The position numbers are program-made. From positions 1 through 12,465 of the forward strand of contig CAXTKV010000161.1 in NCBI GenBank assembly GCA_964244895.1: a DNA stretch of 12,465 nt, written 5' to 3'. Origin of the DNA: an uncultured Deinococcales bacterium. GTDB taxonomy: Bacteria > Deinococcota > Deinococci > Deinococcales > JAAFIG01. Every line of letters starts with the position of its first letter. The stretch's first letter is position 1. Of the stretch, positions 1-6,000 are shown one piece after another.

Positions 1-3000
1 GAGGATCGGATGCCGGTGTGAAAGCCGTTAGCCACACTTCGCTTGACACGCCCGAGCTGTTTGAGTCATGGATCATGCGGCTGGGTCAAGCAAACATGAT
101 TCCAACGCCTCGGCTGGTCGAAGTATTGCAGCTTCGTCACGCGTTGTCGTCCTCGAATCATGTTTCTGCAGACGCTTTCCAACTACTCTCGAGTGTGACA
201 GGCGTATCGGATGTCCGAATCCGCGAGTCTCACCTGACGACTTTCAGTCGATACACGGAGTCCGTTTACAATGTCAAGTATGTCATTCCCGCCCGTACCC
301 AAGCTAAGTATTCAATTCCTTTTAAACCTTGCCCTCGCTGTCTAAACGAGTCAGATCGACCATATATTCGTCTGCATTGGGCGCTGGATCTCAGCTGCTT
401 TTGCGCCGTTCATCATTCGGTCCTGCTGGCCCGGTGTGTCAAATGCGGCAGTTTCTTTTCTCTCAAAGTGACCGAACCTGAGATTCCAATCCACCAATGC
501 CGCAAGTGTGGGTTCGATCTGCGCAACATCACCCCACGCGCTACGCCAGGGTTCGCAGAAGCCATCACTTTCCAAACGCGCCTCCTCGAGATGAAGCGAG
601 ACGCTGTCGTCAATTGGCCTGGAATTCGCTTGAAGGAACCCGCTGCGTTCGCTCAGATCGTTCAACGCCTCTTCCGAGCGCTTTGTGACACTCCGAGCCA
701 TCACGCACTCAGCGAGTTTACAGAGGAGTCATTCCGCTCGAACGTCCATCTGTTGGACGACCGATTCTCCTTTGAAATCAGAAGAACCAATGCGCTTTCC
801 ATGACAGCTTGGTTCCTGAGTAAACCAAGCTCGCATTGGGCAGCGCTCGGCCCACATCTCAGGCGGAATCTTCCATTGGAAGTGAGCGACAGGATCGCGG
901 TGGCCATGTGGCACGCTTTCAACGCTGCAGCAGCTTCAGTCGGTGTGCTCGAGCGGTCGAACGCGCTGACCTCGTGAAGCAGTTCGGACTCGAAGTTTGG
1001 GGCGATTTTGCGTGTTTCTCTCGGCCCGAATTGAAAGTCGAGCGTTACACATATCCGGTCATCACGCCGAGCGCCGCTCGCGCCATCTTCGACGCGATTT
1101 ACCTCAACTTTGATGGCGGTACGCCAAATCGCCCCACCTTTCGCTGGCAGGTAAGACGCATCGAGGTGGTCGAACCCGTGCACTACATTGCGCTGTCCCA
1201 GAACGAGGTCAAAGGGAAAATCCACACTGACAAAGTAGCGCTGTGGATGACGCACTCGGAGCAAATCGAACCTTTGATCGCCGACGCACGAGGCAAAGGA
1301 ACGGAAGAGTACGGTCGGACCCAGCGCCAAACGATTGGCCTGCGACGGGTGCGCTACCGGTTGTTCGCCGAGGCGGTGCTGTACGAGGAGAATCACACCC
1401 TGAGGCAGCTCATCGAAAAGATCTTCGCGCGACGCGCCCGCGCCGGCCAGTGCTACCACCAGCCGTGCCTCGGGCAACGCGAGTTCGGAGCGTACTTCGA
1501 GCTGGTCGAGACGCAAAGTGGACGCTGCGCCGCCGTCAACGAGGACATCGGCTGGATGGTCTACGACGTGTTCGACCTGTCCCGACCGGGTTCGAGTTCG
1601 GACCCGTGGAGTATCAGCACATTTCGCGCCCACGTCCGGGATGGCGTACTCGAGGTTCCACCGTACTCAAGCGAGGACGTCCACAAGTCAGGTTTGGCGC
1701 AATCGTTGCGCGAGCGTGGAAGTCCCCAAGTCGGGTCTGGCGCAACTGGGATGTTCGAAGCGCTCGTCGAGTACGCTCGGCGTACGGGGCTGGCGACCGA
1801 ACCGGGGTTCAGCGAGAAGGTCGTCCGCTGGATAGCGAACGTGAATCTTGATGGGGTGATCACGTCGGTCGCCCCTGCTGATCCCCTCAAAGGCCGTGCG
1901 GTCGTGTTCGCGTGCTGCCCAGATTTGCAACTCCCCGCGATCAAGGCGCTACCGGCGGCGCTCGGGAGGATGGAAAATGGGATCGCCGTTAAGCAAGGTG
2001 CGCACTTCCTCGCGGACACGTGCAGCACGGTTGGTCTGTTCCCGAACGGGTTGGACAGCAATCACAAAATCCTCGACAAGCACCGAGTTTTCACCCATCT
2101 AATCGAGCGGGCGAGTTGGATCATTCCCGAACTTCGACCAATTCATAGCGCACTGTCTGAGGCGAGTTTCCTCGTTCAGATACACGCCATGTTAATCGGG
2201 TGCGGGGCGAAACCAACGGATCGCCTGTCGTTCTCAGTCGATGGAGTTCCGGTGCCCGACATGAACGTCTGGCATTCTTGGTGGCGGGCATTCCGTGAAG
2301 AGGCATCCCCACGCAAACTGGAACGCAACATGGTGTGCCTCGCCACGGGAGAACGCGTCGTTCCAGCGAGAACGCATCCAAGACTCACCTCGCTGGGCGT
2401 GGGCGCTTCGAGTGTTGGAGCCAGCCTGATCGCCTCTGGCAAAGAAGCGTTCAGCTCGTCGAGCTTCCGTCAGGGTGAAAACAGCGCGCTCTCGGAGGAC
2501 GCCGCTTCGGCCTACACATCCGCGCTCGATCACCTGTTGCGCAGAGCGCCCGTCATCGACGGAACAAAAGTTGTTCACTGGTACAGCACCGATACGTCGA
2601 CGAGCCTCGATCCGCTCGCGCTGCTGTTTCAGCCCAGCGAAGTGCGCGAACTCGAAAATTTTTCATCTCGAACGTCCCTCACCAGCAGCGAAATTCGCGC
2701 GTTCGCCGACTGGCCCGGTTTACCCAATGCGCAATACCACGTCATGGTCGTGCGAGGCGCGAAGGCGCGCGCCCGCGTCAGGTTTTTTGCCTCTGGCACA
2801 CAGGAGCAGGCGGTGGCGGCGGTGAGCGCATGGTTCGCTGATTTAGAGGTCTGCACCATCTCTGGCGACGGCTCAACGAGCGCAACGCCCGCCAAACTCT
2901 TGGCGTCCATCAAGAAACCCATTGACAACGACAACGCGGAGGGGAACCGGAACAAGACCTTGCATTCCCTGCACGTTCGGCTCTGGCAGACTGCCCTTGA

Positions 3001-6000
3001 CCCGGCGGTTCCGGTGCCGATCTCGGTCGCGAACGACATCTTGACAACTCTCTACCGCAGTCTGGCGAATCGAGACTTCCAGAAAGCCGTGGCGTACACG
3101 CCCGCAACGTGGAATTCCACGTTGCGAGACACGTTACACGCTTGCATGGGGGGCCTCAAGGGGTATCTCGTCCGCGCTGGCGACCACGACATCACTGTCA
3201 ATCTGAACCCAAACCACCCGAGCGCGAATTATCAATCCGGTCGCTTGGCGGCGCTTCTTCATCGGATCGAGGAAATCGCTAACTCAAACCCGAGCAGTAA
3301 CAGTCACCAGGTATTTGCAGCGTCCATCGCAGGATTGATCGAAAGGCTTGATCGGCAGACGCGAACCGTCAAACGCAGCTTGGATTGGATCGCTGCCGCA
3401 CGTCCGTGGTTGGCCTTGGCGCTCGAATCGTATCTCGAGCGCATCTGGGAAAGCCTCGGCAGTGCTGTGCCCAGAAACAACAGTCCCAAAGCTCGAAGCC
3501 TCTTCATCCTCGGGTACTACCAGCAGCTCGCGTTCAACAATTCGAAACGTACCGCCAATCCAGCAGCTGAGTTCGATCTCGAAGACGGGGACGACACGAA
3601 TGAGGAAATGGATGACCTGTTTGAAACTATCGCAGACCAATCGGGGATGTCAGTCCAAAGTGATGACAACAAGGAGAGACACGAATGAATCCGATCCAGA
3701 ACCGATACGAATTTCTAATCATTTTCGACTGCGAAAATGGCAACCCAAATGGCGACCCCGACGCTGGGGATCTGCCCCGTATGGACATTGAGGACGGGCA
3801 CGGTCAAGTCTCATCTGGATCAATCAAGCGACGAATTCGCGATTACGCTCACCTGCTCGGAGAAGCCATCCTCATTCAACGCTCGAGCAACATCAACAAA
3901 TCGATTTTTGAGGCTCGCGAGCAAACCGGCGATCCAAACGCCACTCCCACCATCAAACGTACGCAGGACGCCACCGCCTGGCTCTGCGAGAAGTTTTTCG
4001 ATGTGAGAACCTTCGGTGCAGTGCTGAGCACCGGCGCGAACGCGGGTCAAGTCACCGGCTCCGTGCAAATCAACTGGGCCAGAAGCATCGATCCCGTCCA
4101 CGTGATAGAAGCCACCATCACCCGAGTCGCTGTCACGGACAAGGCCGATGGAGCCAATTCCGTCGCGGACTTTGAAGATTGGGAGGCTGGGGAGGCCAGC
4201 GGTAGACTTCAGACGATGGGCCGCAAAAGCTTCATTCCCTACGGACTTTTTGTGGCCCCTGGCTTTGTGAGCGCGTTCCAGGCCCAGAGAACGGGCTTCT
4301 CGGAAGGCGATCTTGAGATTCTCTGCGAGGCCATCATGAATATGTTTGAACACAGCCGAACGTCGAGCAAAGGCATGATGTCAACCCGTCGGCTGATCGT
4401 ATTCAAACATTTGGGAACGAGAAAAGACCCTGAGCAGCAGGCACAGCAAGCCAAACTGGGCTGTGCACCTGCCCATAGGCTGCTCACGCTAGGACAAGTG
4501 GTCAGGATCCTTCGCCAAGATAAAACGCGACCGCCGAGAACCTACGCTGACTATACGGTGTCAGTGGATCAGAGCCAACTTCCAGTAGGCGTAGCCATGC
4601 TCGACCTCACCGTTTGGGATGCCGACGAGTTCCACAATGGATGGGTAGTGAAGCGCGAATCTCCAGTAGAGCCCGAAATCCGCAGAGGTTCGCGGAACAA
4701 GAGGACACCGTCAGGAACGAAATAAACTGGATTTTGACGAGTACGACGTGGCCCTTCATTAGCCAATAATTCGGAGTCCGCGTTTCAAGGTCGAAGAAAC
4801 TCGTGCTTTACACATTGGAGTATGATCGCTGTCTTCACGGCTTTATCGCCGTCGAGATGATTGAAACAACCCGCAACTCGCCGGACCGGCCATCGGTTCG
4901 ACCGCAGACCGTCTCCACGGCTTTATCGCCGTCGAGATGATTGAAACTGCTGCGAGGTCAGCAGCACCGTCCAGCCTGCGCCGAGTCTCCACGGCTTTAT
5001 CGCCATCGAGATGATTGAAACCGCAGCGAACTCGCGCTCTACCGGGGCTCCGAGCGTCTCCACGGCTTTATCGCCGTCTATACGACTGGCCCCCGCTGAA
5101 ATCATCGCGCTGACGGCAGGTCTCAAAGTCTTCATAAGGTTTTGATTATCAGTCGAAAATTTACTGGGCATTTGTCGAAATTGGATCAAGATTCCAATCG
5201 TTCTGTTGGATGTATGCTCTTCTCGTTTAAAACGCTCAATCCATTGAGCGCCTCTACAACCCTTGGTTGTCGAGATGATTGAAACCACCGACAGATCATC
5301 GAAGGCGTGTTTTTATGGATACCCAGATCTTGCATCTTCCAAAAAGCACAAAAGCTAAACCGCAGAATTGTTAAACGTTTCAAAACTAACCATGATTTAT
5401 TGCTGACGTGGCTAACGATAAAATCCTTTAGGTTCACGAATCAAATTGACGTATAGAACGGAGATGTTTACGATTCCCAAGATTACTGACGTGGCAAACG
5501 ATACTGACACGTCAAACGATCATTGCTGACATTTTAAACGAAAAGCCACACGATGCCTGACTCAGCACCTCAACCCTTGACGCCCGTCAGAACGACACCC
5601 TCGATGATCTGCTTCTGGAAGATCACGAACACCGCCAGCACGGGAATCACGGCCAAACTGGAAGCCGCCATGATCAACTGCCATTGCGAGCCCGTCTCGC
5701 CGCTGAAACGCGCGATGCCGAGCGGCAAGGTGAACAGGTCAGCGCTGGTCGTGACGATCAACGGCCACAGGAACGCGTTGTAATTACCCAGGAACGTGAA
5801 GATCGCCAGCGCCGCCAGCGCGGGCCGCACGAGCGGCAGGCCGATCTTTGAAAACAAGCCGAATTCGGAGAGTCCATCCAGGCGCGCGGCATCGAAGAGC
5901 TCGTCCGGGATGCCCTCGAAGAAACCCCGCATCAAAAAGACGCCGAAAGCCGAAATCAATCCCGGCAGGGCGATCGCCAGATACGAATTGTTGATGCCGA

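Follow-up and report, generated by a model that had tools for sequence, protein, structure and literature searches.

The window, the whole 12,465-nucleotide stretch analysed here from an uncultured Deinococcales bacterium (genome G000), very probably contains the cas end of a Tn7-like type I-C CRISPR-associated transposon (CAST) that homes by means of a dedicated short guide. The module comprises, in order, tniQ, cas5c and cas8c in one open reading frame, cas7c, a four-repeat CRISPR array and a separate homing guide, without cas3, cas1, cas2 or cas4. An earlier note on this DNA had proposed this reading, and it has been borne out: target-site duplications are present in all four cas-bearing elements now known, and the same geometry of guide, PAM and distance recurs at three unrelated genes. 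The gene calls of that note (TniQ, fused Cas5c-Cas8c, Cas7c) were likewise confirmed by domain matches. At the sequence level, the gene set, both ends, the duplications, the guide-target matches, their distance and the repeat structure are established. The features of the window are as follows.

1..54, no strand: end of a multi-copy IS-like element, replacing the first ~20 tniQ codons (the same 53-55 bases occur at 8 contig ends)
54..977, + strand: tniQ, a short target selector, ~320 aa when whole (PF06527, 2.6e-12)
974..3688, + strand: cas5c-cas8c, a single 904-aa ORF (Cas5c, TIGR01876, 5.6e-30, aa 6-236; Cas8c, PF09709, 1.2e-48, aa 268-852)
3685..4725, + strand: cas7c (TIGR02589, 2.7e-79)
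4831..5092, + strand: CRISPR array of three repeats of 37 nt plus a fourth that has decayed (at 4831, 4911, 4985 and 5056)
5250..5285, + strand: atypical full-length 36-nt repeat, 157 bp past the array, folding into the array hairpin
5286..5308, + strand: homing guide, with pairing dense to position 23 and scattered to 29, and no repeat after it
5399..5543, no strand: four predicted TnsB-type binding sites, at 5399, 5482, 5500 and 5522
5544..5550, no strand: terminus of the transposon, with ACA as its last bases (the end on contig C202 has the same first 11 bases)
5551..5555, no strand: CGATG, the 5-bp duplication of the target site; a second copy precedes the far end on C202 (base 8399)
5570..6421, - strand: intact host sugar ABC permease gene, the attachment gene (PF00528)
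5594..5620, - strand: protospacer (5617 to 5594) matched by the guide, with TTC PAM (5620-5618)

The gene module and its ends

The element is Tn7-like in having TnsB and TnsC, TniQ, arrays of TnsB sites with TGT/ACA termini and a 5-bp duplication. As in class 1 CASTs, Cascade genes lie within the ends without cas3, cas1 or cas2, and a guide matches the attachment site at a fixed distance in three of the four elements; cas3 is found on other contigs in three of the four hosts. Cas5c, Cas8c, Cas7c and the TTC-type PAM, together with the lack of Cas6, identify the effector as type I-C.

The earlier note had taken the tnsAB end to be unassembled. A missing far end can be rejected, as it lies on C202 from base 8399, where it is preceded by CGATG, which links it to the junction in the window, and followed by a TnsA-TnsB fusion. 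The TnsA-N domain (PF08722) is on C202, with Mu-transpos_C and TniB on C198; these pieces share 45-47% identity with the TnsC and the complete 822-aa TnsAB of genome G008, and ~330 aa of the middle of TnsAB are unassembled. At the cas end we count four TnsB-type sites instead of three, the one at 5500 having been added. TnsAB had no sequence match to solved structures at E<=0.01. The stop of tniQ overlaps the cas5 start, and TniQ, whole in genomes G007, G008 and G018, has lost its 5' end here; the G000 protein aligns with the three whole relatives from residue ELFESW onward, and a search of the other contig ends did not find the missing start. With an IS in tniQ and the middle of tnsAB unassembled, the window copy is probably immobile, in line with the earlier view of it as dead.

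The module was found in 3 of 363 other Deinococcota genomes (G007, G008 and G018), in each of which both ends and a duplicated target are present (CCTAT in G008, ACCAA in G018 and ACAAA in G007, as against CGATG in G000). The G008 element looks intact: it occupies 48.8 kb of one contig (10220-59038), its tniQ overlaps cas5 and lies ~40 kb from tnsC, the only TniQ match inside it is the short one, with no second long TnsD, and no cas3, cas1, cas2 or cas4 occurs among its scanned ORFs. The Cas7 proteins of the four elements form one branch (100/99), as do their Cas5 proteins (100/99), and the Cas7 branch is sister to cas3-bearing Deinococcota loci (96/98). The C-terminal halves of TnsB group as well (87/90), and the TnsC tree did not resolve the grouping. 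Because the four elements form one clade, they do not test the gene set independently of one another. TniQ itself falls into a discrete clade of 12 clusters (E<1e-47). A Cas7 search of metagenomes gave 16 loci, none with a match to the G000 TniQ, and a search of genomes with the fusion gave 15, of which 14 likewise had no such match; viral contigs gave no further loci, and plasmids gave distant TniQs, 24-29% identical among the matches listed (20 of 113).

The probable homing guide and its targets

Arrays are present in all four cas-bearing elements. In the window, the decayed repeat at 5056 matches over 23 nt and the spacers are 43, 37 and 34 nt long. They gave only matches of E>=2 in 50,697 phage records, no exact match to three 23-nt patterns in viral contigs and nothing above background in their own genome. 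Beyond the array, the supposed lone 17-nt repeat remnant is ruled out, since the repeat is full length (36 nt) and folds into the array hairpin, with two G-C pairs of the stem changed to A-U pairs in compensatory fashion. Across related repeats, 90% of stem cells are paired and five are changed on both sides; the covariation score was reached in 0 of 500 shuffles (8 related rows, with the structure taken from the same rows). A promoter scan returned one site, which is chance level.

The guide match with its TTC PAM, 67 bp from the element end, held up: 16 of 20 paired positions agree within 24 nt, and none of 20000 shuffles did as well. Among YTC-PAM sites in the 5.1-Mb assembly, this site is the unique best at 24 nt (16/20) and at 30 nt (19/25); at 18 nt (12/15), one site is better and eight are equal. 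The mismatches at seed positions 3-5, raised earlier as a caveat, remain, but are partly accounted for by change in the host, as 19 of 20 paired positions agree with the guide in the permease orthologues of genomes G002 and G006. Third codon positions of the permease gene fall on guide positions 3n and hence on 6, 12, 18 and 24. The permease stop (5570-5572) is 14 bp from the duplication, and an orthologue is present in 17 of 19 family genomes.

Guides match their targets beside a YTC PAM (TTC/CTC) at 67, 69 and 66 bp in G000, G008 and G007, where the targets are unrelated: the ABC permease, tRNA-Met(CAT) and tRNA-Leu, respectively. In each of these genomes the flanking site is the best or only one genome-wide, and just one of the 1280, 1112 and 7152 windows of the three elements matches as well, each time the window after the lone repeat. 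Within its first 18 nt, the G008 guide is mismatched at positions 6, 12 and 18 only. The tRNA-Leu site of G007 has been used twice: the element lies 3 bp inside the end of an older one, and the insertions are at 63 and 66 bp from the PAM. In G018 (assembly 57% complete), neither repeat nor target pattern located a lone repeat or guide, and a second tRNA-Arg gene occupies the expected guide position. Two cas-less mini-elements at clpP (G008:C17 and G018:C259) have guide matches of 15-16/20 at 70 bp; their in-register PAM is TGT or TGC, with TTC or CTC 2 nt off, and one has a 5-bp duplication while the second is without its far end.

We propose that a type I-C Cascade (Cas5c, Cas8c, Cas7c) was captured by a Tn7-like transposon that carries TnsC and fused TnsA-TnsB at one of its ends. 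The Cascade would have lost Cas3 and the adaptation genes and been joined to a short TniQ, with no TnsD. Homing would be by RNA: an expressed atypical repeat outside the array would be cut by Cas5c to release the guide, which would pair with a conserved gene of the host, beside a TTC/CTC PAM, over ~20-23 nt. TniQ, in putative contact with Cascade, would together with TnsC position a cut-and-paste insertion 66-69 bp from the PAM, the cas end facing the target, just beyond the gene and with a 5-bp duplication. The array would also be used, its spacers presumably directed at mobile DNA. A predicted complex of G008 TniQ, Cas7 and the C-terminal part of Cas8c scored 0.07.

The cas genes might instead be cargo or a defence remnant, with homing by a TnsD-like protein and the guide matches as relics. 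Related TnsAB elements in other Deinococcota do have a TniQ-family gene right after tnsC (open frames of ~450-550 aa), and the G018 element, for which no guide is assembled, lies at a tRNA. However, the complete G008 element has no long TniQ or TnsD, tniQ overlaps cas5 in all four elements, and guide and site vary jointly among elements while the distance stays fixed, and we regard this explanation as highly improbable. It is also hard to credit that the lone guide is a regulatory RNA parking a Cas3-less Cascade on a host gene to repress it. Such a role would suit a Cascade without a nuclease and the targets at gene 5' ends in G008 and the clpP mini-elements, but the targets in G000 and G007 are at gene 3' ends, and all five sites lie 66-70 bp from an element end and read towards it, which regulation does not need.

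Relation to known systems

Rybarski et al. described nine I-C CAST loci, which are counted as a I-C variant (PMC12669027), and found no array, self-targeting spacer or attachment site (10.1101/2021.08.16.456562). Those loci share with ours a Tn7-like character, TniQ, Cas5c, Cas7c and Cas8c and the lack of Cas3, Cas1 and Cas2. They differ in that TniQ lies beside TnsABC, away from the cas genes; in the Deinococcota elements the fused TnsAB is at one end and tniQ, overlapping cas5, at the other, and array, guide, sites and duplications are present. A 2024 paper still had I-C CASTs as putative and array-less. Our literature search, with most subscription papers and patents outside its coverage, returned no array, homing guide or attachment site for an I-C CAST and, among the papers listed, none on a Cas5-Cas8c fusion.

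The layout resembles that of I-F3 CASTs (Tn6677, Tn6900; Petassi et al., 10.1101/2020.07.02.184150), in which a single TniQ heads the cas operon with the tns genes at the opposite end, the homing spacer has an atypical repeat and a target near a gene end, wobble positions are in register with every sixth base, and mismatches are tolerated. The present elements differ in their I-C proteins, fused TnsA and TnsB and lack of Cas6 (the I-F TniQ contacts Cas6 and Cas7; PMC10293859), and in having one repeat ahead of the guide, none behind it, and pairing over 20-23 nt. Their PAM-to-end distance is 66-69 bp; for type I CASTs, a distance of 83-92 bp has been cited (PMC11915506). V-K CASTs (PMC12719977) share a delocalised short homing spacer, tRNA attachment sites and the absence of TnsD, but use a Cas12k effector and a partial repeat and have no TnsA, in contrast to the Cascade, full-length hairpin repeat and TnsA domain seen here. 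I-B2 and I-D CASTs (PMC9881144; PMC10293859) share the TnsAB fusion, the 5-bp duplication, a cas end adjoining the target, some non-TGT ends and a TniQ of ~320 aa, and the I-D CAST inserts 75 +/- 6 bp from the PAM; they home by a TnsD protein and use Cas6, unlike the complete G008 element. Canonical Deinococcota I-C systems (G002, G013, G034, G042, L002, L064), sister in the Cas7 tree, have Cas7 proteins 53-58% identical to that of the window and 37-nt repeats likewise ending GATTGAAAC, but carry cas3 where the transposon has tniQ, long arrays and an internal Cas11 start.

I-C CASTs have so far been a name without a mechanism. The Deinococcota family now offers ends, duplications, a PAM, a spacing and a guide design, and in G008 an element that looks intact, so RNA-guided transposition by a I-C Cascade can be tested directly; this would be a first testable picture of site choice in a little-known class of RNA-guided transposons. 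It would also be another convergence on delocalised homing with an atypical repeat. The family raises the question of where TniQ docks on a Cascade without Cas6 and perhaps without Cas11, and a working system would take fewer genes than I-F, I-B or I-D CASTs.

Cas11 start and the Cas5c-Cas8c fusion

The internal cas8c ATG from which type I-C systems make Cas11c is absent from all four transposon cas8c genes (ATC, ATC, CTA and ATT; in G000, ATC at 3191-3193), with TTG or GTG nearby in three, so weak expression is possible. The ATG is present in all 24 TniQ-less loci caught by a motif search that missed 14 further loci. Together with the end of pairing at 20-23 nt, this loss hints that the homing complex is a shortened Cascade. 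An ordinary full-length I-C Cascade, in which Cas11 begins at a codon other than ATG and a shorter TniQ-TnsC ruler sets the 66-69 bp, nevertheless comes close to an even prospect. G008 and G018 have TTG one codon past the lost ATG, AAAGGA is retained in G018, and G007 has GTG two codons upstream; the methionine is also missing in 3 of 17 other Cas8c proteins, the C-terminal bundle is predicted to fold like a small subunit (TM 0.80-0.84), and an I-D Cascade without Cas11 failed to bind dsDNA (10.1101/2020.04.18.045682). Against it, G000 has neither ribosome site nor start, and all four have lost an R[YF]Y motif that every one of 17 other Cas8c proteins retains. In addition, the end of pairing lies 44, 47 and 46 bp from the element end, compared with 43-45 bp reported for I-F (PMC11300857), whereas a 34-nt R-loop would leave ~33 bp.

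The single-chain Cas5c-Cas8c stands as one ORF in the window, but, being confined to this genome (one of four elements), it is not a family feature. The Cas8c ATG lies within it at 1751, and ~43 extra bases form the linker. Its structural model (pLDDT 72, dropping only in the loops and in the linker at 240-277) has type I-C Cascade chains as best fold matches; a single-sequence fold reached pLDDT 36. A one-base sequencing error, along the lines of the earlier concern, is probably not the cause, since two changes are required to restore the usual junction. We lean towards a mistake of the assembly or a genuine change that means nothing because the copy is dead. The fusion is the only two-domain case among 7999 scored candidates and among 19 Cas8c matches, and the tniQ of the same copy carries an IS. 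On the other side, the cas5 stop and cas8c start overlap in the nine relatives listed, and the ATG lies 47 nt past the last Cas5 motif in the three sister elements versus 90 nt, in frame, here. The region between motif and ATG has no stop in any frame, and both domains are predicted to fold.

It is conceivable, though rather unlikely, that a Deinococcota TnsAB transposon captured type I-C independently and became the leanest type I CAST, lacking both Cas6 and free Cas11. Its mini-Cascade would use a guide of 20-23 nt and have TniQ docked directly on Cas7 or on a remodelled C-terminal bundle of Cas8c; five genes would suffice where Cas5 and Cas8c are fused (TnsAB, TnsC, TniQ, Cas5-8c and Cas7), and sites would be swapped freely through one delocalised guide.

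One further Cas8c protein (P0163), from a genome outside the 364 searched, has a C-terminus of the transposon type.

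The cas end and the far end of the element in G000

From its sequence, the element in G000, the genome under study, and its relatives very probably form a family of type I-C CRISPR-associated transposons (CASTs) with RNA-guided homing. This bears out the earlier note, which had read the start of the contig (1..5620) as the cas end of a type I-C CAST with a dedicated guide: both ends, a target-site duplication and flank matches at 66-69 bp are present. The window comprises the whole of contig C161 of G000; its features are as follows.

1..54: end of a multi-copy element, shared by eight contig ends, which truncates the 5' part of tniQ (~20 codons)
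54-4725: tniQ, a Cas5c+Cas8c ORF (904 aa) and cas7c, successive genes overlapping
4831-5092: CRISPR array of four repeats, 3' of cas7c
3' of the array, in order: lone repeat (5250-5285), four TnsB-type sites, terminus at 5550

The missing tniQ codons were searched for at other contig ends and not found, and no targets of the array spacers were found among phage records and viral contigs.

The cas end had been correctly recognized, with four TnsB-type sites rather than the three first counted. The opposite, tnsAB end, reported as unassembled, was located by scanning the genome with a profile built from these four sites. Three more clustered sites lie on contig C202, where a TGT terminus at 8399 has 11 bases identical to the window end and is preceded by CGATG, the same five bases that follow window position 5550. 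Past this terminus lies the TnsA half of a fused TnsAB. Contig C198 holds the TnsB C-terminal part and TnsC; its link to the element is based on homology (45-46% to the G008 element) and a TnsB tree (87/90) rather than on overlap. C198 also carries a caspase-nSTAND1-WD40 protein as cargo.

Host genes past the ABC operon include an FG-GAP repeat lipoprotein-like ORF (window 7922-8866) and a 2-phosphoglycerate kinase with ATP-cone domains (10644-12107). Other TniQ-family genes of G000 stand on C191 and C102 (frames of 447-470 aa), the latter followed by a 3-repeat array near 15887-16028.

Lone repeats, guides and attachment sites

The lone repeat, described previously as a 17-nt remnant, is 36 nt long, and two G-C to A-U changes preserve the array hairpin. 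Lone repeats of this character also occur in G007 and G008, two other Deinococcota genomes. Across eight repeats, 90% of cells are paired and the covariation score was reached by 0 of 500 shuffles, the rows being related and the structure derived from the same rows. In G000, G007 and G008, the sequence after the lone repeat finds its match in the flank, reading toward the element.

Guides and their sites (distance from PAM to element end; paired positions)
G000: ABC permease gene, 3' end; PAM TTC; 67 bp; 16/20
G008: tRNA-Met(CAT), 5' part, antisense; PAM CTC; 69 bp; 18/20 (mismatches 6, 12, 18, 19, 23)
G007: tRNA-Leu, 3' part; PAM TTC; 66 bp; 16/20; guide 3 kb from the array and on the other strand

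Each site is the best or only one of its kind genome-wide, the G000 site not ranking top when scored on 18 nt alone, and the three elements contain no further window with a match this good. Of the 19 family genomes, 17 have the conserved attachment permease, and guide position 3 is mismatched in all 17 alleles. The G000 guide probably came from another host, since the G002 and G006 alleles match it at 19/20 paired positions.

The G007 element is a tandem insertion (G007:C421:2484-2552, L139): an older, related element already occupied this tRNA-Leu site, and the later one sits 3 bp within that element's end. The G018 element adjoins a tRNA-Arg(CCT) gene, with CTC 65 bp from the element end; no lone repeat was found in this assembly (genome 57% complete). 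Within the G018 element there is another tRNA-Arg(CCT) gene, diverged and accompanied by its upstream region (G018:C136:367-443, L049), in the same orientation as the host copy and at the guide position of the sister elements.

The clpP start is a probable fifth attachment site: in two cas-less mini-elements the guide matches at 70 bp, the YTC PAM being absent in register. These lie upstream of clpP (G008:C17:43424-44542 and G018:C259:2650-3280) and have TGG/CCA termini, with CAGTT as the duplication in the G008 copy. What remains of the array is two repeats, and the guide that matches the clpP start follows a lone repeat with a short hairpin.

TANNNT hexamers stand 4-6 bases 5' of the first array repeat (window 4821-4826) and 5' of lone repeats in G007, G008 and the clpP element (L001, L050, L143). 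This suggests leaderless, separate promoters; the hexamers were seen by eye, and a scan gave chance level.

Relatives and origin

The TniQ of the window has matches at E<1e-38 in 3 of 363 other Deinococcota genomes (G007, G008 and G018; next best 1.7e-17). In all three, tniQ is followed by separate cas5, cas8c and cas7 genes and a short array, and both ends and a target-site duplication are present. At E<1e-47, a TniQ profile search of 1.84 billion representatives gave 12 clusters, with a gap after them; 11 are 297-334 aa long. P0163 is a 617-aa Cas8c protein from a 110-kb contig; its C-terminus is of the transposon type (no Met, no RYY), and it is predicted to belong to a further member, which did not turn up in the 364 genomes searched.

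The 48.8-kb element of G008 is assembled whole on a single contig; its TnsAB, TnsC, TniQ and cas frames are open, and it carries defence-type cargo. Its scanned ORFs include no cas3/1/2/4, and it contains no second TniQ. This element makes a hitherto untested CAST class testable. Its cargo (G008:C14:13000-53000; L109, L051, L050) includes a double-GTPase/EAD1/SIR2 conflict cluster, an RHS protein with a HINT domain and SUKH immunity gene, a secretin and an Xre antitoxin. In G018, TnsC is frameshifted and an IS lies 5' of the array; contig C3 there carries a restriction-modification/helicase cluster.

In midpoint-rooted trees of Cas7 and Cas5 (31 rows each), the four elements form one branch each (100/99), and the sister group of their Cas7 branch (96/98) consists of I-C loci of Deinococcota that carry cas3 at the position of tniQ. 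Related TnsAB elements occur in nine genomes of another family, with a TniQ-family gene after tnsC in both of the two checked. One capture of I-C within Deinococcota would be the simplest history. The nearest cas3-bearing loci (L052, L054, L002) continue straight into type III-B cmr genes, and Cas3 is fused to WYL/WCX domains in L054, L002 and L060.

The I-C CASTs known so far are nine loci from metagenomes, in which TniQ adjoins TnsABC; no array, self-targeting spacer or attachment site is reported for them in the available text (10.1101/2021.08.16.456562). The homing logic seen here copies that of I-F3 (10.1101/2020.07.02.184150) and V-K (PMC12719977) CASTs, as far as the accessible parts of these sources describe it. 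Our literature search found it nowhere described for I-C CASTs in accessible text; preprint supplements and the 2025 classification figures (PMC12669027) may hold loci of the family.

The effector

The earlier note had proposed a single-chain Cas5-Cas8c. The fused ORF is probably real, but as a family feature it falls away: one of the four elements has it, and none of the other proteins scored does. At the junction there are 43 additional bases, in frame, with no stop in any frame; restoring the usual overlapping junction takes two changes, though an earlier stop could have been lost by one substitution. The fusion carries little weight because the G000 copy looks dead. A model of the ORF reached a mean pLDDT of 72, with low confidence in the linker (240-277; 31-row alignment), and its best fold matches were Cas8c, Cas5c and small-subunit chains of type I-C Cascades.

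Whether the effector is a shortened Cascade, with a 20-23 nt guide and no free Cas11, is a question on which we put about even odds. Guide and target stay paired for 20-23 nt, and the guide has no repeat behind it. From the end of pairing to the element end are 44, 47 and 46 bp (G000, G008, G007), close to the I-F counterpart of 43-45 bp given in the accessible part of PMC11300857; an R-loop of 34 nt would leave ~33 bp. The family's PAM-to-end distance of 66-69 bp differs from the PAM-to-insertion distances of type I CASTs (83-92 bp, as cited in PMC11915506) and I-D CASTs (75 +/- 6 bp, in the available text of PMC9881144). In canonical I-C systems, an internal start in cas8c gives rise to Cas11, as the accessible text of 10.1101/2020.04.18.045682 and PMC7684278 has it. 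A motif search over 42 loci, several of them near-copies, missed 15; all 24 TniQ-less loci that it caught have the internal ATG, and 14 of 17 further Cas8c proteins have the Met. The ATG occurs in none of the four transposon genes, all of which have also lost the R[YF]Y motif; a TTG or GTG lies near the lost ATG in three. The four elements are one clade, so the loss may be a single event. The effector may do without both Cas6 and Cas11.

G000 also has a complete, distant type I-C system on C36 (L113:6812-17100), with a WYL regulator, cas3, cas5, cas8c, cas7, cas4, cas1 and an 11-repeat array with 37-nt repeats. It is a possible spacer source, and possibly also the reason for the short, mismatched homing guide.
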